A program made the translations under genes and the position numbers. 27,673 bases of DNA, from the IMG/VR virus record IMGVR_UViG_3300042924_002342, positions 1-27,673 of that record; one strand, given 5' to 3'. This DNA is from a virus. Taxonomy: Duplodnaviria > Caudoviricetes. A model generated the notes under the pieces. It did not search any database and was not told where the DNA came from. It worked only from the letters and a program-made list of their open reading frames with translations. This document shows, piece by piece, positions 2,161 to 24,740 of this stretch. Position 1 is the stretch's first letter; each line of letters opens with the position of its first letter.

Positions 2161-2235
2161 TTACTTATAGTTATTATAAATTAGATATAATAAAATAATA
2201 AAACAAACAATAAAGAATACTGTAATTGTAGTCAT
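2161..2235 (-). CDS. Putative small membrane peptide (24 aa, MTTITVFFIVCFIILLYLIYNNYK)
   Basis: The ATG overlaps the hsp20 stop (TAATG coupling). One hydrophobic helix. Not in the ORF track. Confidence 0.45.
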   Translation of the reverse strand: MTTITVFFIVCFIILLYLIYNNYK

Positions 2236-2657
2236 TACTTAATATCTACTTTAATGCCTTCAATTTCTTTTGGTTCTTTATAACCAAGTTTGATTTTTAA
2301 TAAACCATCTTTCATTTCAGCTTCATCAACTAATACATCTTTAGCTAATTCAAACTGTTTGAAAAATTTTCTAAATGCTAGACCTTTTTGTACATAGTCT
2401 ACATTTTTATCTTCTACTTTTCCTTCTATTGTTAAGATACCGTCTTTAACTTCTACAAGTACATTTTCTTTATTGTATCCAGCTAGACCGATTTCTAAAC
2501 CGTATTTACCTTTTGAGTATTTTACTACGTTATAGAATGGAAATGATTGTGCTTTTGACCACGTGTCAAAAATACTTTCAAACGTATCATCAAAAAACTT
2601 TGTTGATCCGTTGAATAATTGTTTGCTTAAATTATTGAAAACTTCAATGTTTGTCAT
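2235..2657 (-). CDS. hsp20: Small heat-shock protein Hsp20 (IbpA-like alpha-crystallin domain)
   Basis: FPFYNVVK, LEIGLAGYNKE, LTIEG, YVQKGLAFRKF.KQF.L and AEMKDGLLKI are IbpA/Hsp20 motifs. Strong SD AAGGAG. Confidence 0.93.
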   Translation of the reverse strand: MTNIEVFNNLSKQLFNGSTKFFDDTFESIFDTWSKAQSFPFYNVVKYSKGKYGLEIGLAGYNKENVLVEVKDGILTIEGKVEDKNVDYVQKGLAFRKFFKQFELAKDVLVDEAEMKDGLLKIKLGYKEPKEIEGIKVDIK

Positions 2658-2663
2658 AATTAT

Positions 2664-2709
2664 CTCCTTTTAAAAAGCAAGTTAATTGGCTCATCCACAT
2701 GATGCAACC
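2664..2709 (-). promoter_or_regulatory. ROSE-like RNA thermometer in hsp20 5' UTR
   Basis: On the - strand, CUUGCUUUUUAAAAGGAG places the UUGCU motif opposite the SD with a bulged G. It is preceded by a second hairpin GGUU-G-CAUC-AUGUG-GAUG-AGCC. Confidence 0.6.
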
Positions 2710-2717
2710 TGCGATGT

Positions 2718-2745
2718 ATATAGATATTATTTATTAATTTTCAAG
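2718..2745 (-). promoter_or_regulatory. Alphaproteobacterial RpoH/RpoD-like promoter of hsp20
   Basis: CTTGAA-N16-CTATAT on the - strand, directly upstream of the hairpin leader. Confidence 0.55.
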
Positions 2746-2934
2746 TACTGATTTTTCTCTTTTAATGTGGCCGAGAACTGTGCCTTTATGAATACCTTCT
2801 TTAATTGTATATCCAGAAGTTCCATTACCATTAATCTCAACTTCTTTTCTACTTTTAAGTAAAGTATTATTTTTCTTTTCTATTTCTTTTTTAGAAAAGT
2901 TCTGAGCTATTAAGTCTTTTAATCTTTCAATCAT
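2734..2934 (-). CDS. Small basic hypothetical phage protein
   Basis: ORF track 2734..2949 (TTG). ATG 2934 (MIERLKDLIAQNF) is the likelier start. Contains EVEINGNGTSGYTIKEG. Confidence 0.65.
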   Translation of the reverse strand: MIERLKDLIAQNFSKKEIEKKNNTLLKSRKEVEINGNGTSGYTIKEGIHKGTVLGHIKREKSVLEN

Positions 2935-2959
2935 AGCTCTAATATACAAAGATTTGATA

Positions 2960-3043
2960 TTATTTACTAGTCTTTTTACACTTACAGTCTTTTAACAATG
3001 CACAAAACCCAGCATAAAGCCAGTAAATGCATTTGTGTCTCAT
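2960..3043 (-). CDS. Putative Cys-rich micropeptide (27 aa, MRHKCIYWLYAGFCALLKDCKCKKTSK)
   Basis: ATGA overlap with the speD stop, preceded by GGTGG. Four Cys. Fills the intergenic gap. Not in the ORF track. Confidence 0.4.
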   Translation of the reverse strand: MRHKCIYWLYAGFCALLKDCKCKKTSK

Positions 3044-3435
3044 TTATAAAAACCACCTTTTAAATCCACGAGCCCCGTTTCGCGATTTAAAAACTTATAT
3101 TCAATTTTAGTTATTTCAAAGTCTTTTCTAATTTTTTTACATATAACTTCAGGGTCAAATTCACCACAAGAGTATACATCAAATTGCATTAGCGCTGGAC
3201 TTGGTTCGTCCCAAACGTGCATAACAATGTGTGATGTTTCTATGATCGCGGCTCCTGTAATTCCTCTGTTTCCAGGTACGTCATGATAAATTACATATGG
3301 CCCCATCAATACTTTCATATTAATAGATGTAATAAAATCTTTTAACCAATCGGTTAAATACTTTTCGTCCATCGGGGGTTTGACCGCCTCTGCGCGAACA
3401 ATAAGATGTTTATGTACTAAGAGGCTATCTTTCAT
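3040..3435 (-). CDS. speD: S-adenosylmethionine decarboxylase-like pyruvoyl proenzyme (SpeD family)
   Basis: HLIVRAE, GITGAAIIETSHIVMHVWDE (autocleavage S-H region) and QFDVYSCGEF match class 1b AdoMetDC motifs. Confidence 0.85.
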   Translation of the reverse strand: MKDSLLVHKHLIVRAEAVKPPMDEKYLTDWLKDFITSINMKVLMGPYVIYHDVPGNRGITGAAIIETSHIVMHVWDEPSPALMQFDVYSCGEFDPEVICKKIRKDFEITKIEYKFLNRETGLVDLKGGFYK

Positions 3436-3439
3436 TACG

Positions 3440-3895
3440 TTAGGCCGGTCGGTAGATTACTTTTTCGTCTTCACGCGTAGCGACTAAAAATTGTTTTCTG
3501 TTCTTATCACCGTTATATGATACATGAACCCATCCACTATTCGGATCACCTTCTTTATAAAATTCTAAAATGAGTTGATCAAACTCTACGTTATCTTTAA
3601 TCCACATTGCTAACTCCTTATTATCTATGTTCATGATTTCTATATCAGCAGCTTTTCCTTCAGAGTGTTGTGAGGTTGGTTTAGAACCAATTGCAATACA
3701 AAGTTCAGGCGACCGATATCCAGAAGAAATTACTACTGGAGAATCAAAGTGTGACCTTATAGGTTGTAATACATTTAAACACAAGTCTTTTAAATTATTT
3801 ATTTGGTCTGTGGATGGATTATTAGATATGCCTTTACGTTCAGCAATCTGAGACTTAATTAATTCATGTAATTCAAAGTTCTCTGATAGTTTCAT
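3440..3895 (-). CDS. Peptidase M15A-family endolysin (Zn D-Ala-D-Ala/L-Ala-D-Glu peptidase fold)
   Basis: LSENF.L.E, ISSGYRS, SQH..GKAAD, FDQLILEF and GWVHVSY; Zn ligands H, D, H. Confidence 0.9.
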   Translation of the reverse strand: MKLSENFELHELIKSQIAERKGISNNPSTDQINNLKDLCLNVLQPIRSHFDSPVVISSGYRSPELCIAIGSKPTSQHSEGKAADIEIMNIDNKELAMWIKDNVEFDQLILEFYKEGDPNSGWVHVSYNGDKNRKQFLVATREDEKVIYRPA

Positions 3896-10574: not shown

Positions 10575-11701
10575 TATGCTAAACTTCCTTCAAGTTGGTT
10601 CATTAATTGATACATTTTTTGTGCTCCTTTATTAACACTTCCTCCACCTGCTGCTCTAACTGCATCTGCAGTCATAACAAATTCATTTTTAGATAATCTT
10701 GCTGGAACATCATCTGCTTTTTCTTTTGATCCAACGGGAATAAATCCACCCATTCTATAATCCATTTCCATAGGAACTCCACCTATTTTTAATCCCATTA
10801 AACCACCATCTTTTTTCTTATTATATTCTCTATAAAGATCTGATTCTACTTCTTTAATTTTATCCATATCACCCATAGCTTTAGCTTCTTCTAATAACTG
10901 AAGTAATTGTTTATATCTATTACCTGAATAACCACCTGGGATTTCTACTAAACCTCTTCTTACATCCATAATACCACCATCCATAGCACCAACTCTACCA
11001 CCATTTCTTAAACCTAATTGTGCTAATGTAGAATTAATTTCATCCTCAGCAAATCCTGCTCTAGTCAAAGAACCAAGAATTGAATTTCTTCTACCTAAAT
11101 TAAAATCAGCTAGCTGTTGACCACTGAAATTTTGAAAATTCGCATATTCTCTTTCATAATCTTCTTTTGCTTTTTGAGCTGCTTCAACTGCTTTTGCACC
11201 ATATTCAACAGTGCTTGGATATGTTATAGCTTTAGCTGATTCAAGTAATCCCTGTGGATTTGCTAAACTATTTACAATACCTGAATTAGCAGCTTGAGTT
11301 GCTAGTTGACCTATTTGTTGAGTAAGAGTTTGTTGAGCAGCAGGCACTATATTAGAACCTATCTTAGCTGCTTCAATAGATCCTTTTATACCCTCTGTTG
11401 TTATAGGATTTAAATAGTCTCCCAATGAACCTAATCCAGATTGAATTATATTTGGAGCAGCTGCAAGAACTCCTGTTTTTAAAATATCTTTAAAACCGGC
11501 TTCTGAATCAGTCAATCCTCTAGTTGCACCTGAAATTAACATTTTTTGAAATATAGGATTTGACACTCCATATTTAGCAAGTAAACCACCAGCTCCTTGA
11601 AGACCTGGTATAAATAAAGCTGCGTAAGGTAATATTGGTTTTATTTCATTAGGTATTATTTTACTAATTGCTTTAGTAACTGATCTTATTGCTTTACCCA
11701 T
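10574..11701 (-). CDS. Putative internal virion protein with GG repeats and C-terminal ADDVPARLSKNEFV domain
   Basis: Amphipathic/hydrophobic N-terminus, several xxGG motifs and the conserved tail GGFIP...KADDVPARLSKNEFVMTADAVR..G.G....GA..MY. Confidence 0.7.
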   Translation of the reverse strand: MGKAIRSVTKAISKIIPNEIKPILPYAALFIPGLQGAGGLLAKYGVSNPIFQKMLISGATRGLTDSEAGFKDILKTGVLAAAPNIIQSGLGSLGDYLNPITTEGIKGSIEAAKIGSNIVPAAQQTLTQQIGQLATQAANSGIVNSLANPQGLLESAKAITYPSTVEYGAKAVEAAQKAKEDYEREYANFQNFSGQQLADFNLGRRNSILGSLTRAGFAEDEINSTLAQLGLRNGGRVGAMDGGIMDVRRGLVEIPGGYSGNRYKQLLQLLEEAKAMGDMDKIKEVESDLYREYNKKKDGGLMGLKIGGVPMEMDYRMGGFIPVGSKEKADDVPARLSKNEFVMTADAVRAAGGGSVNKGAQKMYQLMNQLEGSLA

Positions 11702-12137
11702 TTAACCAACTCTCTTTCGTGAATCTTGTTTGTGTTCTTATAATTTTATTATCAACAACTCTTAACCAATTGATTGGTTTGTTGATTCCTAATGTTTTTG
11801 TAAAATATTGTTTAGTCCAACTCATAATTTTATTTAGATTTTTAACACAAATGGTGTCAATATGCCACAGATGATTACCACTATTCCAGTCTTGATCTTC
11901 AAGAATACCTGTGTTTTTAAAGTCTTTTTCAACGTCTTTGTTTAAAAAAGCCCAGTTAGTAAAACCTATCACTGTATCTCCATCTTTGTGTATTTTATAT
12001 TGCTCCAATTTAAAAGAAGGAAGTATGTGATAGTATATATCTTCTCTAGTGTACTTATTATACTTATCAAACTTCTTATAGAGAGATATGATAGTTTGCA
12101 TATCTTCTAAAGTTTTCTTATTAAAAATGAAGTTCAT
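11694..12137 (-). CDS. HlyC/TAAT-like (RTX toxin-activating lysine acyltransferase family) protein
   Basis: ILPSFKLEQY...IGFTNWAFL...E...DWNSGNHLWHID parallels the HlyC pattern LPAI..NQY...AYCSWA.L...E...DW.SGDR.WFID. Alternative start at 12101. Confidence 0.72.
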   Translation of the reverse strand: MNFIFNKKTLEDMQTIISLYKKFDKYNKYTREDIYYHILPSFKLEQYKIHKDGDTVIGFTNWAFLNKDVEKDFKNTGILEDQDWNSGNHLWHIDTICVKNLNKIMSWTKQYFTKTLGINKPINWLRVVDNKIIRTQTRFTKESWLNG

Positions 12138-12208: not shown

Positions 12209-12457
12209 TTAACCTAAATTAACGCTTGCTCCTAATGGCAAACTTATGACTTTTACATGCACACTTCTAGAAATATGCTCTGCTTTAGTGCTTGTATTTG
12301 GGTTTTGAACATCAGATAACGCTTCTGAATCCGATGTATATTCTTGACCAGTTTCTAAATTTTTAAGAGTTATTTCTACTCTTGGTTTATAGACAGCTAC
12401 TTGTTTCCCATCTATAATTTCAGTTTTTATTGATTCTTCTTGTTCTACAAACGGCAT
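12209..12457 (-). CDS. Small conserved virion-region protein
   Basis: 82 aa, TAATG-coupled to the upstream gene; motif TGQEY.SD.EA..DV..P.T.T. Confidence 0.75.
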   Translation of the reverse strand: MPFVEQEESIKTEIIDGKQVAVYKPRVEITLKNLETGQEYTSDSEALSDVQNPNTSTKAEHISRSVHVKVISLPLGASVNLG

Positions 12458-12789
12458 TATCTATCCTCTCTGTTCATTTCTAAAATTGATACTATAGCAC
12501 TTATACCAGTTATTGTAGAAGATGCAATCTTTAGAATATCTCCTTCTTCTAATACTATAGGTCCTGAAGCTAAATTACATATTGTAGGTCCTGTAATAGA
12601 AGCATAAGCTATTTGATAATCCGTTGATGCTGATGAATCAGTTACTGATACTATAACTATCTTTGATCCCGATTCATTTGTTAATTGAATATTTTGTACA
12701 ATAGATCTTGAATTAGAAGGAACAGTATATACAGATACTGCTGCAGTTGAAGCCGGATCGTAAAATGAATTTTTATATATATTTGCCAT
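12457..12789 (-). CDS. Small beta-rich tail protein (hub-type paralog 3)
   Basis: VYTVP....SIV..I.LTN and PIVLEEGDILKI...VSILE; same pattern as the 20474 and 24015 proteins. Confidence 0.7.
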   Translation of the reverse strand: MANIYKNSFYDPASTAAVSVYTVPSNSRSIVQNIQLTNESGSKIVIVSVTDSSASTDYQIAYASITGPTICNLASGPIVLEEGDILKIASSTITGISAIVSILEMNREDR

Positions 12790-14018
12790 TATGTTAAATC
12801 AAACCATTTTAATAAACCAGATACATCTCCATTAGCTGTTCCTGGTCTTACGCCTAATGTTAAAGTATCTGACACACCTGCAATAGTTTGTCCAAGTTGA
12901 TTTGCGAATGCTATAAAATCTCCACCTAAAGTAAATGGTGCAGTCTTACCTCCTAAATATCCTCCAGCAACTCTTGTACCTGTTGAAGTTAAATCAACTG
13001 TTGTTAAATCATATTCTACATTATCACTAAAACTTGAATATGAAAAGGCAGAGGATGGTGTTGCATTAATAAATAATCCCCATTCAAAATCTCCATTAGA
13101 TATGTTTAAAACATCTACTCCAGCTGGAACTATAACTGCATAAGGCCTTCCTGTTTTAATTCTAATTGTTGCAATATTATAATAAGTATTTGCTGTAGTT
13201 AAATTCACTCCAGCACTAACAGTTCCTGTTCCAATCATTTGTTCTAATCCTTGTGGAGAATATCCACCTTCAGAAATACAAGAAGAACATATTTGTTGTA
13301 ATGTATAAGTTCCAGCCGTCAATGTTCCAGCTCTTTCAATCTCATAACGAATTGGAAGATTGGCTGTTTGCATATAAACAGTCGTTAAACTATTAGCATT
13401 ATAAAAAGTATGTGCTGTAATTAATTGACCATTAATAACAAATCCAACTCTAACAGATCCTACACCTAACCATTCAATATCTATAAATAGTATATTTGAT
13501 GTAGCTGCATTTAAGGTAAATCCACTTGCTCCCGTTCCATTTAAAGTATCTCCGTTCCAACTAGATTGTGATATTTCAGTATCAACTGGAGCACCTGATG
13601 TATAAGTTCTTCTTACTATTTTAAGTGTTGTTCCATCTGCTGTAAAAAATATTCCGTTATTTGCATCAAATAAACCTACCTTTTGTTTTAAGTTTGCAGT
13701 CAAAGTATTCATTACAAATGTATTAAAAATAAGTAATGACTTACCAGGTTGATAAGACATGACTCTATTAGACTGTCTTACTGTTTTAGAACTTGCTGCT
13801 TCTGTTACATTTAAATTAACTGTAGATTTATTAGCTGTATAAGTAACACTTCCACCACTTGCAGTAGTTGCATTAAATAAACTATTCTGTGACATGATAC
13901 TCTTACTATCAAAGATAGTTAGAGGATTAGAAACTCTTAATCTTCCGAATGCATCAACATTATTACCACCGATTGTAATTAACTGACCATTACCAATATT
14001 TACATTATCACAAGACAT
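12789..14018 (-). CDS. Beta-rich putative virion protein (DAFGRLRVSNP family), 409 aa
   Basis: ORF track 12789..14024. ATG 14018 overlaps the upstream stop. Motifs DAFGRLRVS.P.T.FD, YQPGKS, IDIEWLGVG.VR.GF and TANLPIRYEI. Confidence 0.7.
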   Translation of the reverse strand: MSCDNVNIGNGQLITIGGNNVDAFGRLRVSNPLTIFDSKSIMSQNSLFNATTASGGSVTYTANKSTVNLNVTEAASSKTVRQSNRVMSYQPGKSLLIFNTFVMNTLTANLKQKVGLFDANNGIFFTADGTTLKIVRRTYTSGAPVDTEISQSSWNGDTLNGTGASGFTLNAATSNILFIDIEWLGVGSVRVGFVINGQLITAHTFYNANSLTTVYMQTANLPIRYEIERAGTLTAGTYTLQQICSSCISEGGYSPQGLEQMIGTGTVSAGVNLTTANTYYNIATIRIKTGRPYAVIVPAGVDVLNISNGDFEWGLFINATPSSAFSYSSFSDNVEYDLTTVDLTSTGTRVAGGYLGGKTAPFTLGGDFIAFANQLGQTIAGVSDTLTLGVRPGTANGDVSGLLKWFDLT

Positions 14019-14197
14019 TAACACTTACCTCCACTTGACATAAACCAACTAAATCTTTCTGTATCTTCTTTTAAATCTTTTAAATAAGTAGAATTTAATT
14101 GTTCCACAATAATACGAAGAGCTCTATTAATTTGTCTCTGATTATCTACTTCATATTCTGATTTTGGTTCTGGAACCCTTACATTAATCTTAGCCAT
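14018..14197 (-). CDS. Small tail-associated protein (59 aa, MAKINVRVPEPKSEYEVDNQRQINRALRIIVEQLNSTYLKDLKEDTERFSWFMSSGGKC)
   Basis: TAATG-coupled at both ends and exactly fills the gap after the nozzle-like gene. Not in the ORF track. Confidence 0.8.
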   Translation of the reverse strand: MAKINVRVPEPKSEYEVDNQRQINRALRIIVEQLNSTYLKDLKEDTERFSWFMSSGGKC

Positions 14198-16408: not shown

Positions 16409-17155
16409 CTATGCTGTATTAGTTTTATAAGTCCAACCTTGAGTAGCATTTACATAAACTAATGTAATGGATTGTCTGTTTGTATTTAAAGTTAAAGCAG
16501 ATGCTGCACCTAAAATATTACTAGAATTATTACCTACTACACAATTGTTTGAAGCAAAGAAATTAAAGCCATCAATAATAACTACTTCATCTCCTACACT
16601 AGGACTAGCAGGTAAAGTTACTGTAACTGGATTTGTTCTTGTATCTACAATTAATTGATCTCCGGCAACTGCTAAATAAGGTGAGTTGCTAGAACTAATA
16701 GAGTTATATCCTTTTTGCATTATACCAATAGAAGTTAAAGTATTTGCTCCATCAGATACTAATAACAAAGTAGAATTCACTGGAACTTTAGTTGCTGTAG
16801 CTTGTCCTGTAGTTAATACACCAATTGTATAATTAGAAGTTGTTCTAGTTGTTGCATCTTGTATAATAAATACTCTATTTGCATTACCACCTGTTGTTGA
16901 TGCTGGCATTGTAACTGTACAGTTACCAGTTAAAGTTCCTGTAAGTTTAATATATAATTTTTTACCATTAGCAGTATCTGATCCATCCGCTAAACTTAAA
17001 TTAGTATTACCTGTTGTAAGTGTTAGAGTTGTATATCCTGATGATGATGCTTGTAAAATTTGTAAGTTAGTATTTGTAATTGTTCCCCATAGACCAGCTT
17101 TTTCTCCGGTTGCTACAAGTTCTAATGATAGGTCTGTAGAATATGTTGATGCCAT
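16409..17155 (-). CDS. Tail fibre/collar-type structural protein
   Basis: N-terminal STYS..L.L.ATGE.AG.WG..TN.NL anchor. C-terminal TVTLPASPSVGD...LVYV.ATQGW fibre domain. Confidence 0.7.
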   Translation of the reverse strand: MASTYSTDLSLELVATGEKAGLWGTITNTNLQILQASSSGYTTLTLTTGNTNLSLADGSDTANGKKLYIKLTGTLTGNCTVTMPASTTGGNANRVFIIQDATTRTTSNYTIGVLTTGQATATKVPVNSTLLLVSDGANTLTSIGIMQKGYNSISSSNSPYLAVAGDQLIVDTRTNPVTVTLPASPSVGDEVVIIDGFNFFASNNCVVGNNSSNILGAASALTLNTNRQSITLVYVNATQGWTYKTNTA

Positions 17156-17774: not shown

Positions 17775-18167
17775 TTATTCTCTTGTTTTAATTTCCCAAT
17801 TTATAATAGATTCATTCCAAGAATAATATTGATTATTTTCTAATTCTGTTGTTGGAATAGTAACTGGTGCTACCCAAAGACAAGTTTGTTCATTTAATAT
17901 CCATGAATTAAAAGGTTTAGGTGGAATGAAAGCATCACTAGAAGAATCGTAATCAAACCCAATTCCAGCAAAATTTTTACGTAACGATTTAGATTGATCC
18001 AATGATGGTTCTTTTGTAATTGGATCATAATGAACACCACCAAAAGTGTTGTAAGAAGTTTGTAACCATTGACCATCTGTTGAATCAATAAATGTTTCAA
18101 AAAATTCTGGTTCAGCAACAATTACTTTAATTACTTTGTTATCTTTAACTTTTGCAAAATGTGCCAT
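17775..18167 (-). CDS. Partner of Gly-rich adhesin, copy 3 (MAHFA...QTSYNT family)
   Basis: MAHFA, WLQTSYNT.GG, RKNFAGIG..YD...DAFIPPKPFNSWILNE.TC.W.AP; paralog of the 19118 and 21159 genes. Confidence 0.8.
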   Translation of the reverse strand: MAHFAKVKDNKVIKVIVAEPEFFETFIDSTDGQWLQTSYNTFGGVHYDPITKEPSLDQSKSLRKNFAGIGFDYDSSSDAFIPPKPFNSWILNEQTCLWVAPVTIPTTELENNQYYSWNESIINWEIKTRE

Positions 18168-18180
18168 TTTATATTTTCCT

Positions 18181-19125
18181 TTAACCTATATATGTTCCTG
18201 AAGAAGTAAAGGTATGATATGTAATACCACCTGAACTTGATATAGTACCACCACTTCCTCGTTGAGCACCTGCATAACTAATAATTACAACACCTGAACC
18301 ACCGTTTCCGCCTGAATGAATACTTGAAGGATTAAAGCCACCTCCACCACCACCACCACCGGTATTTGAGGAACCATTTGATCCATTTGCCGCAGAACCA
18401 CCTGCACCACCACCACCAACACCACCACTACCTCCGGGTTGATCTGCTCCGCAAGAGTATGCTGTGTAATTTGTATTTCCTCCACCTCCACCGCCGGCAT
18501 AAGTTGAACCATTTGTCCATGTAGTACCAGCACCACCAACACCTGCAATTTGACCGCTTGCGTTTCCACCAACTGCATTTGCTCCACCACCACCTCCACC
18601 TGTACGAATACAAGATGCAGGAGATACTCCAGAAGTACCACCGGTGTTACCTTGCCCGCTTGTTCCCGAACCGCCGCTTGCAACCCCTGTACCATCACCG
18701 CCTGTACCACCACCACCGCCACCAGAACCTCCGGTTGCACCTACCCTATTAGCTGCGGTATTAGTACTTAAACCGCCTCCACCACCGCCACCGGTTGAAG
18801 TAGTGCTGTCAAAAACTGAATTATTACCGTTACTGCCATTGCCTGTACCACCTGAACCGCCAGCTCCAACTGTTACTGTATAACTTGTACCGGGATTAAC
18901 GGATTGTGAAGATGCCCTATAACCACCACCACCTCCACCTCCGCCGGCATTACCACCACCTGATCCACCACCAGCTACAATTAAAAAATCTACTGAATAA
19001 GGTTGGCCTGGCCAGATATTATTTTTTTTGGCATTAAATTGATCTTGTAATCTCCATACTCCTGTTGCTATAGAAGCTGTTGGAGTATTTACTTTACCAA
19101 TTATACCACCATTACGTTTAGCCAT
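18181..19125 (-). CDS. Glycine-rich tail fibre/adhesin protein, copy 3
   Basis: FLIVAGGG.GG...GGGGGG.Y, NTGGGGGG, G.GGSGVVIISY and HTFTSSGT; polyglycine-rich domain. Confidence 0.8.
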   Translation of the reverse strand: MAKRNGGIIGKVNTPTASIATGVWRLQDQFNAKKNNIWPGQPYSVDFLIVAGGGSGGGNAGGGGGGGGYRASSQSVNPGTSYTVTVGAGGSGGTGNGSNGNNSVFDSTTSTGGGGGGGLSTNTAANRVGATGGSGGGGGGTGGDGTGVASGGSGTSGQGNTGGTSGVSPASCIRTGGGGGGANAVGGNASGQIAGVGGAGTTWTNGSTYAGGGGGGNTNYTAYSCGADQPGGSGGVGGGGAGGSAANGSNGSSNTGGGGGGGGFNPSSIHSGGNGGSGVVIISYAGAQRGSGGTISSSGGITYHTFTSSGTYIG

Positions 19126-19516
19126 TAAATAACTCCCAATTTAAAATTTCTTCATTCCATTTATAAATATTACCATCATTAGGTTTATCAATAGGAGCAT
19201 ACCAAATACAAGTAGTTTCGTTTAATATCCAAGAGTTAAAAGGTTTAGGTGGTATAAAAGCATTTCTTGTTTCATCATAAGTATATCCAATATTAGCATG
19301 GTTTTTTCTAAATGGTTTTCCACCTAATTGATGAACTCCACCATGAGTGTTGTAAGATGTTTGTTTCCAAATAGCATTTGGTTCATTATATAATATTTTT
19401 AAAAAATTAATTCCTAATTGTTCTTGTTCTATTCCATTTGAATCTTTTAATACTTCATTAACAACAGATTCAACTGTTATTACAATATTATTTTCTATTT
19501 TTGCAAAACTAGCCAT
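19118..19516 (-). CDS. Partner of Gly-rich adhesin, copy 2
   Basis: MASFA, WKQTSYNT.GG, RKNHA.IGYTYD and AFIPPKPFNSWILNE.TC.W.AP. Confidence 0.8.
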   Translation of the reverse strand: MASFAKIENNIVITVESVVNEVLKDSNGIEQEQLGINFLKILYNEPNAIWKQTSYNTHGGVHQLGGKPFRKNHANIGYTYDETRNAFIPPKPFNSWILNETTCIWYAPIDKPNDGNIYKWNEEILNWELFNG

Positions 19517-20457
19517 TATGTTGTGTAACTCCCTGTACCATTAAATGTTAAAATTGTTTTTCCTGAAACACCTGTAGCAACAGTTGGAGAACCAGTAATA
19601 ACCCCTGTATAATTTGCATCAGGCATACTTAATATAACAACTCCTTTTCCTCCTGAACCAGCACCTGCTGTACCTCCACCACCTCCTCCTCCAGTATTAG
19701 CTGTTCCATTAACACCAGAACCTCCTGAACCGCTTCCGCCTGCTCCACCTCCTCCATTACCTCCTGCTCCTCCAGTAGTACCATTAGCTCCTCCTCCACC
19801 TGCTCTTGTTATTGATGAACCTGTTATTGAAGATGCTGTTCCTGCTCCTCCTGCACCACCAGTAGAACCACCTGAATTACTACCTATTGCACCTGCACCT
19901 CCACCTCCTCCTCCACAATTAAGAACACCTGAGCTTCCACCATTATTACCTTGTGATGGAGATGTGCTAGGAGTATTTCCTGCCGCACCTGATAAACCAT
20001 TAGTAGAACCACCACCACTTCCACCAGCAACTGCTGCAAGCTGAGAAGTGGCATTATGTCCACCTCCACCACCACCCCCAGCAGAAGTTATTGTTGTTAA
20101 ACCTGTTCCTGATATTGAAGAATTTGAACCAGAAAAACCGACACCATTTGGGTTAACACCACCTCCAGCACCACCATCACCTACTGTTACTGTAATTGTT
20201 ACTTCACTATTTGCTGTTTGAGTTGAAGTTCTATATCCTCCAGCACCTCCACCACCTGCACCCCTACCATTAAAATTATCTTTTCCACCTCCAGCACCTC
20301 CAGCTATAACTAAAAAATCTATTGAATAAGGTGGTCGTGAGGGCCAAATATTTGAAACTCTTGCGTTGAATTGATCTTCAAGAGCCCAGACTCCTGATGC
20401 GACTGTTGTTGTTGGGGTGTTGACTACTCCGATTATTCCACCGTTCTCTTTTGCCAT
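19516..20457 (-). CDS. Glycine-rich tail fibre/adhesin protein, copy 2
   Basis: Same N-terminus as the 18181 protein (MAK.NGGIIG.VNTPT...A.GVW.L.DQFNA...NIWP) followed by the Gly-rich domain. Confidence 0.8.
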   Translation of the reverse strand: MAKENGGIIGVVNTPTTTVASGVWALEDQFNARVSNIWPSRPPYSIDFLVIAGGAGGGKDNFNGRGAGGGGAGGYRTSTQTANSEVTITVTVGDGGAGGGVNPNGVGFSGSNSSISGTGLTTITSAGGGGGGGHNATSQLAAVAGGSGGGSTNGLSGAAGNTPSTSPSQGNNGGSSGVLNCGGGGGGAGAIGSNSGGSTGGAGGAGTASSITGSSITRAGGGGANGTTGGAGGNGGGGAGGSGSGGSGVNGTANTGGGGGGGTAGAGSGGKGVVILSMPDANYTGVITGSPTVATGVSGKTILTFNGTGSYTT

Positions 20458-20473
20458 AGCAAAAATCTCCCGG

Positions 20474-20848
20474 TTAATTTATTTCTTCGTATGAAATAAC
20501 AATTTCTAGATCGCCAGCTGCACTTGCACCACCTAGGATAGATTTATCTTCTTCTAAGTAAAAAGAATTTGTTTTATCTACTACAGATAAAGTTGCATCT
20601 GCTGGTACAGTAATTGTAGAAGCTAAAGCATAAGATGTTCCACTACCTGCTGCTGCAGTATTAATGTCTATTGTTACATCTGCAGCATTAGTTCCATCTA
20701 CGTTTGAAACCATGATTGAATTAATTTTAAAAACTTTTCCTGAAGCTGCTGAATTTGCAAGCAAAACTGTTGTAAGACTCGTTGTAAGAGCCGCATAGGT
20801 TGTCTTACCTATTATCGTAGTTACGTTTACTATATTTGGATTTGCCAT
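20474..20848 (-). CDS. Small beta-rich tail protein (hub-type paralog 2)
   Basis: MANPNIVNV, KINSIMVSNVDG, TITVPADATL and YLEEDKSI...ISYEEI. Confidence 0.75.
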   Translation of the reverse strand: MANPNIVNVTTIIGKTTYAALTTSLTTVLLANSAASGKVFKINSIMVSNVDGTNAADVTIDINTAAAGSGTSYALASTITVPADATLSVVDKTNSFYLEEDKSILGGASAAGDLEIVISYEEIN

Positions 20849-20869
20849 AATTTAATCTCCTGTTATATA

Positions 20870-21166
20870 TTATGCGAAAACAATTGAAATTGCAATTGAT
20901 TTCCCTATTGTTGTGGCTGTACCAGAGCCAATTGTTAAAGTAGCACCACTAGGAATAGCAATAGTATCCCCACTATCTCCTAATGTAAGTGTAGTTCCAG
21001 ATGCTGGTTCTATTGTATTTACTTCTATAGTAGTAGGTAATGTTAATGTTGCTCCGCTGGCATTTATGGTAGCTCCACTAGCAATAGTAATAGTATCGCC
21101 ACTATCGCCTAGCGTTACGTCGGTGCCGGATCGCGGGGTTATCTTATTTACTTTTAGTTCACTCAT
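20870..21166 (-). CDS. Short tail-fibre adaptor with duplicated anchor motif
   Basis: Two copies of (L/I).VN.I.P.SGT..TLGDSGDTI.I.SGAT and a C-terminal GKSIAISIVFA. Confidence 0.7.
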   Translation of the reverse strand: MSELKVNKITPRSGTDVTLGDSGDTITIASGATINASGATLTLPTTIEVNTIEPASGTTLTLGDSGDTIAIPSGATLTIGSGTATTIGKSIAISIVFA

Positions 21167-21566
21167 TATTTTTTAATTCCCAATTTATAATTTGCTCGTT
21201 CCAAGTATAATAATTCTTATTATCTATTTGTTCTTGTGTCAATTCTGGCATAGCAACTGGTGCATTCCATAGACAAGTATCTTCATTTAATATCCAAGAG
21301 TTAAATGGTTTAGGTGCAATAAAAGCATCTCTTTGCTGGTCGTATTGAAATCCTATTCCTGCATAGTTTTTTCTTAGAGGTGTTCCACCGAATTGATGTG
21401 TACCACCATAAGTATTATATGATGTTTGAACTACTGGTAAATGTTGATTATTAAAAAGATGTCTTAAAAAATTTATTCCTGCCTGTTCCGTTATTGCATC
21501 ATTATTAGATACTACAACTACTTGTTCTACTATATTTCCTGATTTTAAAATTGCAAAATGTGCCAT
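21159..21566 (-). CDS. Partner of Gly-rich adhesin, copy 1
   Basis: MAHFA, QTSYNT.GG, RKNYAGIG and DAFIAPKPFNSWILNE.TC.W.AP. Confidence 0.8.
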   Translation of the reverse strand: MAHFAILKSGNIVEQVVVVSNNDAITEQAGINFLRHLFNNQHLPVVQTSYNTYGGTHQFGGTPLRKNYAGIGFQYDQQRDAFIAPKPFNSWILNEDTCLWNAPVAMPELTQEQIDNKNYYTWNEQIINWELKNNE

Positions 21567-21567
21567 A

Positions 21568-22842
21568 TTAACCTGTGTAACTTCCTGATGTTGTAAATGT
21601 TAAAACTGTATTTGCTCCTGATGTTGTAATTGTTGGTCCACCAGTTACTACTCCTGAGTAACTTCCTGTTGGAACTGAAAGTATTACAATTCCTGAACCT
21701 CCATTACCACCATTTAAATCTGGGTTAGCCCCACCTCCACCACCACTACCTGTATTTGCAGTTGCACTTGTAGCTGCTGTACTACCACCTCCACCATTTC
21801 CTCCACCTGCTGATCCTGATGAAGTATTTGTTCCGCTACCTCCTCCACCACCACCTGCATAAGTTACTGAAGAACCAGTTATTGAAGATGCTGTTCCAGC
21901 ACCTCCAGCACCACCAGTACTACTACTAGGTGCAGTTATACCATTAGAACCAACAGCACCTGAACCTCCTCCTCCACCTCCTGCTGTTCTTGTTTCAACA
22001 CTAGTTCCGGGTCCCGCACCATCTCCACCAGCATTACCTTGTCCAGATGTTCCTGATCCTCCAGTTGGATTAGATGCCGCACCATATCTACCTCCTCCTC
22101 CTCCTCCTGAACCTCCTGATATTCCGTTATTATCAAAACCTATACCTCTACCACCACCAATAGCTGTTGTTAAACCTGTAAAAGATGAATTTGAACCATT
22201 AGTATTTCTTAATCCACCTGCACCTACTACAATTGTATAAAGTGTTTCTGATACAAGAGTTGTAGTACCAGCAATTAAACCACCTGCCCCACCTCCTCCT
22301 GCCATATTATCACCTCCACCACCACCTCCAGCTATTATTAAATAAGAAGCTGTGTAAGGTGTTGGTGCTAAAGAAACTATACCTTCATTAACACCAGAAG
22401 TAGCAACCCAGCCTTGTGTAGAATCTATATAAGTTATAATTACACCTTCTCTGTTTTTGTTTAAAATTTTATTATCTGTTCCACCATTAATTTTATTTCC
22501 ATTAGCACCTAATGTAATATTGTTTGTTGCAAAAGTTCCTGCATAATCAACTATTGCTAATTGATCTCCAACTGAAGCTGAAGCTGGAAGAGTTACTGTA
22601 AAAGCTGCAGATGTAGTATTGCAAGGATATAAATTTCCTTTAACTGCCGTGAATCCTGTTGTTTGAACTGATTGTGTAGTAAGACCGAATCCCGTCGCCG
22701 TTCCGCTATTAACTAATGTCGCACCTGCAGGAATACTGATCGTGTCTCCCGAAGCGCCTATTGTGATCGTATTAGCATTTTCATTGATAATGTTATTGCC
22801 GTTTTGATCTTGGATCGTGTCTACTTTTAAAATACTGCTCAT
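21568..22842 (-). CDS. Glycine-rich tail fibre/adhesin protein, copy 1 (anchor + TLPAS.SVGD domain + Gly-rich domain)
   Basis: MSSILKVDTI...GASGDTISIP anchor, a middle domain shared with the 16409 protein, and a Gly-rich C-terminal domain. Confidence 0.8.
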   Translation of the reverse strand: MSSILKVDTIQDQNGNNIINENANTITIGASGDTISIPAGATLVNSGTATGFGLTTQSVQTTGFTAVKGNLYPCNTTSAAFTVTLPASASVGDQLAIVDYAGTFATNNITLGANGNKINGGTDNKILNKNREGVIITYIDSTQGWVATSGVNEGIVSLAPTPYTASYLIIAGGGGGGDNMAGGGGAGGLIAGTTTLVSETLYTIVVGAGGLRNTNGSNSSFTGLTTAIGGGRGIGFDNNGISGGSGGGGGGRYGAASNPTGGSGTSGQGNAGGDGAGPGTSVETRTAGGGGGGSGAVGSNGITAPSSSTGGAGGAGTASSITGSSVTYAGGGGGGSGTNTSSGSAGGGNGGGGSTAATSATANTGSGGGGGANPDLNGGNGGSGIVILSVPTGSYSGVVTGGPTITTSGANTVLTFTTSGSYTG

Positions 22843-22848
22843 AATTTA

Positions 22849-23148
22849 TTATTTTGGATATTTCTGTTTAACTGCGTTAATTGCTTCTTCCCAATTATTA
22901 GTATTATTAATTTTATCCCAATATTGTAAATCTAATTGTTCTTGAATAGATGGATATGCTTTAGCTCTATCTCTTTGGTATTTTTTAGAATTATATTCTG
23001 CAATTAGTTCTTGTTGCTTAGCAAGTATTTCATTTGCAGGAATTGGTGTAGTTCCATTGTGCCAAACTATTGTATTAATATCATCTCCACTTACACTAAC
23101 TTGTGCTGTTGGATTGATTGCTAAAATTGAATTAACTATTGTTGTCAT
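22849..23148 (-). CDS. Putative tail-fibre assembly chaperone
   Basis: YQRDRA.AYPSI.EQLD..Y.D.....W...I.AVK.KYPK motif; lies directly after a fibre gene. Confidence 0.65.
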   Translation of the reverse strand: MTTIVNSILAINPTAQVSVSGDDINTIVWHNGTTPIPANEILAKQQELIAEYNSKKYQRDRAKAYPSIQEQLDLQYWDKINNTNNWEEAINAVKQKYPK

Positions 23149-23149
23149 A

Positions 23150-23833
23150 TTAACCTGCTATTTCCATTAAAATAAAACTGCCTCTACTATTACCAAAAGA
23201 AGTTATTAAACTTGGTCCCGCATTAGCTGCTCCAGCAGGTGTATAAGTAATTGCAGAAGTTGTATTTGGAGAATCTAAATGTACTATTGAAAATGATGTA
23301 AGAACACCATCACCTGATGAATCAAGATTACCAAATCCCCAGTTAGAATCTCCAAGATTTGTTCCTGTTGCTATAGAACCTCTATATATAGTAAATCTAC
23401 AACCATTAGAACCATTGGTATTTTGAGCTCCTGTTGAAAATAACATTAAAATTTTATTAGAAGCAGAAGAAGGAGTTATTGTAGCTGCTAAATTTAAAGT
23501 AACAAAACTAGATGATGTAGTTGTAAGTGAAGATGCTGAAGTTGTTTGAACAACTTGCAACACCGCACCCGCTCCTAATTTAGTTGTAGCAATAGCTGCT
23601 GTAGTACTAATATCTGCATTAACAATTGAAGTAGCTAAATTTAATTTAGAATATGCTATTGCAGCAGAAGCATTTACTTTTGCATTTGTTACGGTACCAT
23701 TAGGTAAAGTTAAAGTTCCACTAGAAGCATCTAAGGTTGCACCACTTGGTACAGTAATTGTATCTCCCGATTCGCCGAGAGTGAGTGTAGTTCCAGATTG
23801 TGGTAGGACTTTATTAACTTCTAATTGACTCAT
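23150..23833 (-). CDS. Tail fibre protein with beta-sandwich tip
   Basis: Anchor MSQLEVNKV.PQSGTTLTLGESGDT, stalk repeats (V/I).NA.(V/I)...AAIA.(S/T)KL, and tip GAVLQVVQ...ITPSSASNKIL...DSPNTTSAITY...LMEIAG. Confidence 0.75.
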   Translation of the reverse strand: MSQLEVNKVLPQSGTTLTLGESGDTITVPSGATLDASSGTLTLPNGTVTNAKVNASAAIAYSKLNLATSIVNADISTTAAIATTKLGAGAVLQVVQTTSASSLTTTSSSFVTLNLAATITPSSASNKILMLFSTGAQNTNGSNGCRFTIYRGSIATGTNLGDSNWGFGNLDSSGDGVLTSFSIVHLDSPNTTSAITYTPAGAANAGPSLITSFGNSRGSFILMEIAG

Positions 23834-24006
23834 TATAATATTACCAACGTTCCTGTTACTGTAAATGCATTTACAATTGTTACTGGTCCTGCAAGAACTG
23901 CAGATTCAATAACCACGTTTTGATTTTCTAAAACTTGAGCATGAGTATAGATATCCTGTGCTCCCGGTTTATTACCGATATAAGTTGTAGTATATAAACT
24001 ATCCAT
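23833..24006 (-). CDS. Small tail adaptor (57 aa, MDSLYTTTYIGNKPGAQDIYTHAQVLENQNVVIESAVLAGPVTIVNAFTVTGTLVIL)
   Basis: Hand-translated. The stop overlaps the next ATG (TAATG) and the ORF fills the gap. Not in the ORF track. Confidence 0.75.
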   Translation of the reverse strand: MDSLYTTTYIGNKPGAQDIYTHAQVLENQNVVIESAVLAGPVTIVNAFTVTGTLVIL

Positions 24007-24014
24007 ATTTTTAC

Positions 24015-24341
24015 CTATGCACTAATTGAATCTACCACGCTTACATAAACATCAGCAGAAGTTGCAGTATTTGATTGTACTCTAAGTAAATCAGTATTCT
24101 GCATCACAAATTTAGCACCACCTGTAACAAGTTCAACTGAACTTGATGGTGGAATGCTTAAATCTTTTGCAATGTATCTAACGGTACTTCCTGTTACAGA
24201 AACCCATACATCAACGGTGATTGCTGAAGATAATATGTTTGCGATCCTAATTCCAATAACTGCGTCATTTGAATTTGCTGTAAAAATAGTGCTAGCACTG
24301 TTAGTTGCTTGTGCGCTATATCTTACGAAATCTTGTGCCAT
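24015..24341 (-). CDS. Small beta-rich tail protein (hub-type paralog 1)
   Basis: VIGIRIAN, IAKDLSIP..SSVELV.GGAK.VMQ..D.L.V.S....S.DV.VS; SD AAGGAG. Confidence 0.75.
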   Translation of the reverse strand: MAQDFVRYSAQATNSASTIFTANSNDAVIGIRIANILSSAITVDVWVSVTGSTVRYIAKDLSIPPSSSVELVTGGAKFVMQNTDLLRVQSNTATSADVYVSVVDSISA

Positions 24342-24356
24342 ATGTTCTCCTTATTA

Positions 24357-24740
24357 TTATAATGCGATTGCCATGGCAACAGCAAATCCATTACTTGCTG
24401 CACCTACTGGCGCTCCGATTGAATCTAAATACACTGCTTTACTTGCTGGTAATGTACAAAATACATCTTTTGTACCACTTGTAAAAGTTACAATGCTATC
24501 AGAGTTAGAACTTGTTAAAATTGTTGTTCTAGTTAAAGTAGTTGCACCTGCATCAAGTGTTCCTAATCCAACTTCCCATTCATTAGTACCTTGATTAAAA
24601 ATAGCATAGTAAGTTGTATTATTGCCACCGATGCCTGCAGCAAAAGTATCAAAACCAGTTTGTGCTCCGGCCAAAGCAAATGGACCTGTACCAGTTGAGG
24701 TACTAGTTTCTTTTACTCTGTCGTTTATTACTAACGCCAT
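24357..24740 (-). CDS. Tail structural protein with C-terminal GFAVAMAIAL motif
   Basis: DRVKETS...GTG, WEVG.GT, L.RTTI..SSN and GTKDVFCTLPASKAV; SD AGGAG. Confidence 0.75.
   Translation of the reverse strand: MALVINDRVKETSTSTGTGPFALAGAQTGFDTFAAGIGGNNTTYYAIFNQGTNEWEVGLGTLDAGATTLTRTTILTSSNSDSIVTFTSGTKDVFCTLPASKAVYLDSIGAPVGAASNGFAVAMAIAL

Follow-up and report, generated by a model that had tools for sequence, protein, structure and literature searches.

Can the wiring of a branched tail fibre be written into the ends of its genes? This question is raised by a cassette at positions 17,775 to 24,740 of IMG/VR virus record IMGVR_UViG_3300042924_002342, a whole contig of 27,673 nt hereafter called the window, in which short terminal peptides recur from gene to gene and small hub genes stand between putative fibre genes. 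A first-pass annotation had proposed that these peptides and hubs are reusable connectors of a two-level tree. Genomic comparison strongly supported such a connector grammar at the level of genes, and supported the annotation's wider reading in part. We conclude, with a probability of about 0.7, that the cassette encodes a branched receptor-binding complex assembled through short docking peptides.

By its structural module and synteny, the window belongs to a short-tailed phage, an HTVC023P-type podovirus. Its 733-amino-acid (aa) nozzle-like protein shared 66% identity with that of 023Pt_psg01, where the cassette order is the same, and 42-44% with those of HTVC027P and HTVC023P. HTVC023P-type phages are reported to be the most abundant marine phage group known, with structural genes largely unassigned (bioRxiv 2019.12.14.876532; here and below, citations refer to the accessible part of each source). 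The variable cassette sits between an upstream SU10-type adaptor gene and the nozzle gene, entirely on the minus strand, and we keep the first-pass habit of naming genes by their low coordinates. The genes are, in reading order:

24357 to 24740, minus strand: 127-aa root protein of the 'DRVKET' family, with plug 1, GFAVAMAIAL, at its C-terminus (last 10 codons, 24360-24389)
24015 to 24341, minus strand: hub 1, 108 aa, predicted all-beta jelly roll
23833 to 24006, minus strand: 57-aa adaptor with an N-terminal YIG anchor and C-terminal 6-residue beta repeats, preceding anchors A, B and C
23150 to 23833, minus strand: fibre with class A anchor (MSxLEV..Q) and LQVVQ..MEIAG beta tip (phrog_6942 tail fibre, E 5e-8)
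22849 to 23148, minus strand: partner of the MEIAG tip (phrog_9114), probably a chaperone of tail-fibre assembly
21568 to 22842, minus strand: protein with class B anchor (MSSILKVDTIQ), XD1-like domain and Gly-rich head (PF21722)
21159 to 21566, minus strand: MAHFA-type partner of the Gly-rich head (phrog_7759; such partners come after Gly-rich tips)
20870 to 21166, minus strand: tipless protein with class C anchor (MSELKVNK..R), ending in plug 2, GKSIAISIVFA
20474 to 20848, minus strand: hub 2, 124 aa, hub 1 paralog
19516 to 20457, minus strand: GGIIG-anchored Gly-rich adhesin 1 (PF21722, Gly_rich_2, E 1.6e-18)
19118 to 19516, minus strand: partner of adhesin 1 (phrog_7759)
18181 to 19125, minus strand: GGIIG-anchored Gly-rich adhesin 2 (PF21722, Gly_rich_2, E 1.2e-13)
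17775 to 18167, minus strand: partner of adhesin 2 (phrog_7759)

Every motif named in the first-pass annotation was found in its place. The root protein has the C-terminal end SNGFAVAMAIAL and is followed by hub 1 and then by the adaptor, in which YIGNKP occupies residues 9-14 and the C-terminal end is AGPVTIVNAFTVTGTLVIL; in relatives, plug 2 or the adaptor C-terminus closes the root domain instead. The tipless 20870 protein is likewise followed by hub 2, and both adhesins behind it begin GGIIG.VNTP, each with its partner. At least four tips had been expected, and four are present: three PF21722 genes, each followed by a phrog_7759 gene, and a phrog_6942-like gene followed by a phrog_9114 gene. 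Judging from these family labels, the four tip proteins would bind receptors. The chaperone role given to 22849 agrees with its phrog_9114 assignment and with the PF16778 matches of its HMO-2011 and HTVC203P counterparts, but the protein itself gave no PF16778 match. A third hub paralog (12457-12789) and an XD1-like domain had been overlooked.

We propose that each jelly-roll hub, probably a trimer, would receive the C-terminal plug of its own class and would in turn hold the N-terminal YIG or GGIIG peptide of the next proteins. From the virion outwards, the path would lead from the root through plug 1 and hub 1 to the 57-aa adaptor, whose three slots would be non-equivalent and would take one class each, A, B or C; the class C protein would bear plug 2, hub 2 and two Gly-rich adhesins, each with its partner protein. 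Recombination right behind the anchors would exchange tips, and replacing a tip with a plug-hub unit would alter the depth of the tree. The contacts in this model, its oligomeric states and stoichiometry, the presence of the complex in virions and its location on the tail are what we infer from the following comparisons.

Viral contigs were searched for each plug. The pattern FA[IV]AMA[IV]AL followed by a stop, used alone, occurred in at least 120 stretches (about 1800 estimated). Among the matches listed, one was a locus already in the set and 53 had fewer than 400 bases downstream; in the 66 informative loci, hub 1 was the next gene in 63, lay behind an inserted open reading frame (ORF) in one more and was lacking in two. 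The plug 2 pattern carried no stop; 47 of its 120 listed matches were too close to a contig end, and the 73 informative ones all fell within two codons of a stop, with hub 2 next in 71 and hub 1 in none. A pooled set held 252 distinct hub sequences with an adjacent upstream ORF, after 23 without such an ORF had been dropped. It comprised 105 pairs of hub 1 with plug 1, 125 of hub 2 with plug 2 and no crossed pairs, together with 9 further hub types and 13 hubs behind another ORF, read by eye as eight inserted endonuclease-like genes, four divergent plugs and one spurious ORF.

Both plug-hub pairs occurred in five carrier families (DRVKET, MASTY.L.LEL, MAGY.RQS, KDYST and T7-gp17-like; these names are our own labels). 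When the 230 cognate rows were thinned to below 72% similarity, all 76 remaining hubs were cognate, and shuffling plugs within carrier families, which leaves the relatedness among loci in place, reached at most 62 in 10,000 tries. Even so, the result shows plug class to follow the hub and not the protein bearing the plug. Across all ORFs of the examined loci after deduplication, the cognate hub came next behind 240 of 254 plug-ending ORFs and the non-cognate one behind none, as against 31 of 2809 non-plug ORFs with a hub next, a contrast that applies to loci chosen by plug, hub or adaptor and is not a genome-wide rate. The adjacency of motifs across viral contigs, which the first-pass annotation had put forward for checking, is thus above chance. 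In DNA, plug 1 was spelled in 99 ways and plug 2 in 94, with third codon positions free, stop codons varying and residues kept; the constraint therefore acts on the peptide. Plugs often continued a coiled-coil-like stretch, and the spacing from plug to hub was short and contained the ribosome site.

In eight loci (L012, L033, L047, L116, L152, L197, L420 and L430), an ORF read by eye as HNH/endonuclease VII-like stood directly before the hub gene, in L197 between plug and hub. Apparent 'fusions' in the protein database, a 169-aa hub-adaptor and a 243-aa root-hub protein, were rejected as gene-calling read-through: each has Q at the stop position, followed by translated spacer.

The two hubs gave no BLASTP alignment with each other, and the paralogy claimed for them emerged by profile comparison only (Prob 95, E 3.5e-8). 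The AlphaFold model of hub 1 was a nine-strand sandwich (predicted local distance difference test, pLDDT, 95.8). Among the best 50 matches listed, its closest solved fold was the KHP40 trimeric cement protein (7dou; Z 10.1, root-mean-square deviation 2.8, 103 aligned residues), followed by an endospore pilin (Z 9.7), a nucleoplasmin-type domain (9.5), the HFTV1 turret chain (9.2) and an archaeal turret protein (9.0). In the comparison with KHP40/Pam1-type cement proteins, 7eel gave Z 7.5; TNF/C1q chains (Z 6.9-7.5) and the HS1 needle knob (Foldseek E 2.3e-3) ranked below the cement, pilin and nucleoplasmin rows. TSP4/gp10 XD2-3 and the crAss001 hubs were not among these best 50, which leaves a likeness possible. 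Hub 1 had no Pfam match, and its profile found nothing credible among PDB chains by sequence; BFVD held many uncharacterised phage proteins at template modelling (TM) scores of 0.8-0.9 to it, and the ESM Atlas search matched only unnamed viral clusters. The hub fold is predicted to be a common virion jelly roll, and a hub trimer is plausible. Complex prediction with three copies each of hub 1 and the last 30 root residues, run without controls, scored 0.21, 0.38 and 0.28, a median below the 0.32 mark, which speaks neither for nor against docking.

On the far side of the hubs, the next gene had a YIG-like start in 102 of 105 cases behind hub 1; behind hub 2 it was GGIIG-like in 90 of 128, YIG-like in 10 and of another kind in 28. 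These counts support the first reading's view of the GGIIG anchor as an echo of the YIG anchor, the two being kin, and show the hub-anchor side of the code to be looser than the plug-hub side. Within 4 kb of hub 2, none, one, two or three anchored genes were present in 5, 19, 20 and 5 loci, respectively; for hub 1, none, one or two were present in 1, 27 and 3. HMO-2011 and HTVC203P have two YIG genes per hub. In L081 (13179-15825) and L488 (7224-10029), each YIG-anchored fibre precedes a gene that has a tip of its own and starts MA[IL][TS]K[IV] or MPLIK, a sign that yet another class of anchor may exist.

Behind the adaptor, a single N-terminal anchor had been claimed for three proteins (MSQLEVNKV..TLGESGDTI in 23150, MSSILKVDTI..TIGASGDTI in 21568 and MSELKVNKI..TLGDSGDTI in 20870, which holds a second copy of the anchor repeat). 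The homology stood; the single anchor did not, since the three fall into separate classes: A has E5 and Q12, B is one residue longer and reads ILKV..IQ, and C has K5 and R12. One each of A, B and C occurred in 47 of 50 loci with at least three anchors, in about 40 distinct triples and in the orders ABC (28, two of them with a C-like anchor without R12), CBA (11), ACB (5) and CAB (3). Gene order therefore mirrors the proposed assembly order from plug through hub to first anchor, but not among A, B and C. Every anchor class bore several tip types, the partner gene going with the tip type, and in many relatives class C was conserved over its first 15 or so residues only. Other lineages, too, place three anchors behind an adaptor end (L193, HMO-2011 twice, L212, L219 and L224). 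Elsewhere, in 27 loci, the adaptor C-terminus directly continues the root domain; these loci have lost both plug 1 and YIG, and their sequenced DNA, in several cases a short contig, showed no hub 1. Two further fusions (L113:2551-3246 and L115:7295-7990) join the root domain to a different adaptor end, IGPITISS..W.VF, and are followed by a 71-aa tipless protein with the anchor MSN[IF]KIQGNASG that ends in plug 2.

The XD1-like domain of the class B adhesin (residues 65-154, 22381-22650) matched CBA120 TSP4 residues 92-181 (7REJ, E 2.8e-11). In the CBA120 account, XD1 is trimeric and a spacer rather than a docking site (PMC8825819). Of 31 A/B/C triples, XD1 was present in all three chains in 17, in none in 9 and in some in 5, the window among the last; it was absent from all 50 GGIIG adhesins. 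This distribution suggests that A/B/C chains are of trimer type and GGIIG adhesins of monomer type. As its presence in only some chains of five triples speaks against one A/B/C heterotrimer, we lowered that model and somewhat favour three separate, probably homotrimeric chains on three slots; the all-or-none pattern in the other 26 triples is still compatible with a heterotrimer. A self-folding single-chain solenoid for the adaptor was not supported by a fold from 30 sequences, with pLDDT 55 and a predicted TM score of 0.28, which the shallow alignment may explain. PDB sequence searches with the class A fibre, the root and its 150-aa neighbour found nothing credible. The only other gp10-like XD match in the window was also XD1-like and lies in a 248-aa fibre (16409-17155, minus strand), which ends in this domain (CBA120 TSP4 residues 92-181) and whose N-terminal family (MASTYS.DL.LEL) ends in plug 1 or plug 2 in many relatives.

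Exchange of parts was visible in DNA. Relative L004 is 97% identical to the window through codon 57 of the A gene; beyond that point the two diverge, and they agree once more only over the stretch of the B anchor. Other near relatives lose identity 26-53 codons into A. In L087 and L092, the likeness to the window (83-84% identity) is confined to the final 13 codons of C, hub 2 and the opening of the following adhesin, and this plug 2-hub 2-anchor block sits in a different gene context. Breakpoints thus fall at the plug and just behind anchors. Together with cognate pairing independent of the carrier, free third codon positions, and gain and loss of the cassette as a unit, these breakpoints strongly support the connector grammar at the level of genes. 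The order plug, hub, anchor also recurred in podo-, sipho- and myovirus isolates, namely HTVC203P, HMO-2011, 023Pt_psg01, DSL-LC04, HTVC033P, Bellamy, S-TIM5, PhiW-14, Melnitz (twice) and HTVC026P, where the plug terminates an annotated tail fibre or baseplate-linked gene; some isolates carry further plug types (ALG, IVMG), and the loci and isolates together revealed no fewer than four additional ones. Synechococcus phage Bellamy (L086:284-18416) has at least five short hub-like genes, each before an adhesin-like gene and behind a different hydrophobic C-terminus (SLGLVIALGA, DITASLFT, ELDAALFN, GKAIALSMVFG and DTWLYGGG); of these, the 126-aa one was matched to hub 2.

A bolder version of our model, which we regard as possible but doubtful, would make several orthogonal plug-hub pairs a recursive connector alphabet in aquatic phages of all three tail types: the 57-residue adaptor would template an A/B/C heterotrimer, the root would spread into at least a dozen tips per vertex, and depth would shift by one tip/plug-hub recombination.

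Several points weigh against a branched complex. The loci are related, and each was picked by one member of the pair; the anchor, plug and carrier classes are our own regular expressions, fixed after the data had been seen, as were the A/B/C definitions, a first anchor expression having been dropped since hub 2 and 8% of other ORFs also matched it. Three of the 50 loci break the one-of-each rule (ABBC, AB with two C-like anchors, and a truncated ABB), and the 28 genes of another kind behind hub 2 have no recognised anchor. The fold matches at Z 9-10 include pentameric nucleoplasmin cores and pilins, so the trimer is not fixed. The support is genomic or fold-level, the GenBank label 'virion structural protein' being an annotation; the PDB sequence search yielded no solved relative of the root protein showing its virion binding site, and a virion proteomics paper, supplement aside, gave no match for HTVC or CRP-9 in its accessible text (PMC12014285). 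Hub 1, moreover, can be dispensed with, as 27 loci show, and in 27 of 31 loci just one YIG gene lies within 4 kb of it, which a plain coupler fits equally. Because of this bypass by fusion and the single YIG gene, hub 1 may, in the window's lineage, serve to couple or multiply parts and not to fork towards different tips.

The same two observations, with the plugs that prolong a coiled-coil-like stretch, would suit linear joints without a tree, in which peptides and hubs join the pieces of split fibres end to end and tips are alternatives on different fibres or particles. We consider this unlikely: exactly one A, B and C is kept through four gene orders in 47 of 50 loci, where three free draws, ignoring descent, would give 22%; hub 2 has two or three anchored genes nearby in 25 of 49 loci; and HMO-2011 and HTVC203P place two YIG genes at one hub. 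More improbable is the same docking code on the head, with the hub as a cement- or turret-like capsid protein of a head-fibre array for first reversible contact. The top folds (KHP40 cement trimer, HFTV1 turret chain, archaeal turret protein) point that way, as does an HFTV1 turret base that bears a glycan-binding head (bioRxiv 2024.12.09.627619), but the cassette lies between SU10-type adaptor and nozzle genes, and the isolates' plugs end tail fibre or baseplate-linked genes. In both window and isolates the hubs stand among fibre genes, behind adaptor or nozzle genes, and not beside the major capsid gene, the place expected of a KHP40/Pam1-type cement gene. That the conserved ends involve no protein contact, being inherited as arms for recombination, signals for translation coupling or tags for degradation, suits the coinciding breakpoints and the short spacing with its ribosome site but is very unlikely, given that residues stay while third positions and stop codons vary, that plug class tracks hub class rather than carrier, that plug and anchor disappear together with the hub, and that endonuclease-like genes have entered between plug and hub with neither lost.

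Outside the cassette, the window holds one more hub gene, making three in all:

12457 to 12789, minus strand: third hub paralog, behind the nozzle gene (Prob 98, E 5.7e-14 against the hub 1 profile), possibly a needle or nozzle knob

Directly behind the nozzle gene lies a 59-aa coiled-coil-like ORF (14018-14197, minus strand), whose 54-aa counterpart in L019, L040, L083 and L436 is directly followed by the third hub paralog; in the window a 411-aa phrog_1645 gene intervenes. The two may possibly form a tail needle with a separate knob. Small ORFs at 2235-3895 (minus strand) may encode proteins like Hsp20, AdoMet decarboxylase and peptidase M15. An HlyC-type acyltransferase (PF02794, E 8e-17), known for this group from a figure legend of the HTVC023P preprint, is encoded at 11694-12137 (minus strand), with tail genes on one side and putative ejection genes on the other. 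Clusters of genes resembling 2OG-Fe(II) oxygenases, so annotated in 023Pt_psg01, lie behind the last fibre partner in many relatives (among them L004, L005, L049 and L058) and are absent from the window.

Many genes labelled 'hypothetical' in the variable region of HTVC023P-type phages and in HMO-2011-type, HTVC010P-type and cyanomyophage genomes gain a role from this code, and the wiring of receptor-binding complexes could be read from gene ends. It also points to a way in which phages whose hosts are dilute and microdiverse could bear several tips together. The orthogonal pairs of 10-15-residue peptides and hubs lend themselves to tests on small soluble proteins, and cultured carriers exist.

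How does the cassette compare with known systems? Its glycine-rich heads recall T2/S16 gp38-type adhesins, whose glycine-rich heads are thought to form polyglycine sandwiches; unlike these, compared by description only, the cassette heads belong to PF21722, with YIG/GGIIG or A/B/C anchors and a phrog_7759 partner. G7C gp66/gp63.1 is a further branched receptor-binding system. Full-text literature searches, which reached few subscription papers and excluded supplements, found no description of stand-alone hubs with C-terminal plugs. Nor was such a plug code present in the accessible parts of the accounts of Pa223 (bioRxiv 2025.06.11.659172), Milano (PMC10811340), crAss001 (PMC10172136) and HFTV1 (bioRxiv 2024.12.09.627619), or of a jumbo-phage survey (PMC7824862). 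The solved folds closest to hub 1, HFTV1 turret base and KHP40 cement, share 11-12% identity with it; the turret base, too, joins one structure to another (capsid to glycan-binding head), but both are capsid-bound, as hexamer or trimer on the shell, with no peptide code reported in the text available. In crAss001, the tail hubs gp38/gp39 are A2B trimers holding the gp22 N-terminus (PMC10172136); as proposed for the cassette, separate small hub proteins take a fibre's N-terminal peptide, and the fibre bears further fibre proteins, whereas those hubs form a collar fixed to the tail barrel and hub 1 has no sequence match to any PDB chain.

Peptide docking on jelly-roll domains has precedent (PMC13352976, PMC8825819). 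In the dual receptor-binding protein (RBP) systems of Klebsiella phages KP32, K11 and KP34, a short, conserved, deletion-tested N-terminal peptide docks the second RBP on a branching domain, and the cassette likewise has, as on secondary RBPs, a conserved N-terminal peptide independent of the tip; theirs, unlike ours, is a single level of two RBPs with the branching domain inside RBP1, and lacks a C-terminal plug, free hub and slot classes (PMC13352976). In CBA120, TSP1-4 form a branched tailspike complex with T4 gp10-like XD domains (PMC8825819). Shared with it are several putative receptor-binding genes, a proposed hierarchical docking on beta-jelly-roll modules, exchangeable tips, and an XD1-like domain in the class B adhesin and the 248-aa fibre. 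The CBA120 XD2/XD3 docking domains (about 60 aligned residues) lie inside the spikes, whereas the cassette hub is a separate gene of 108-124 aa reached by a C-terminal plug; CBA120 also lacks paralogous plug-hub classes and a 57-aa three-slot adaptor. Where CBA120, G7C and KP32 carry beta-helical depolymerase tailspikes, the cassette carries PF21722 Gly-rich heads and a short phrog_6942-like beta tip. The cassette therefore works like the CBA120 and KP32/K11/KP34 branched systems and, having no depolymerase tips and a docking domain in a separate gene, is not filed as a member of either; the plug-hub system is real and widespread, and probably a novel form of branched receptor-binding system.

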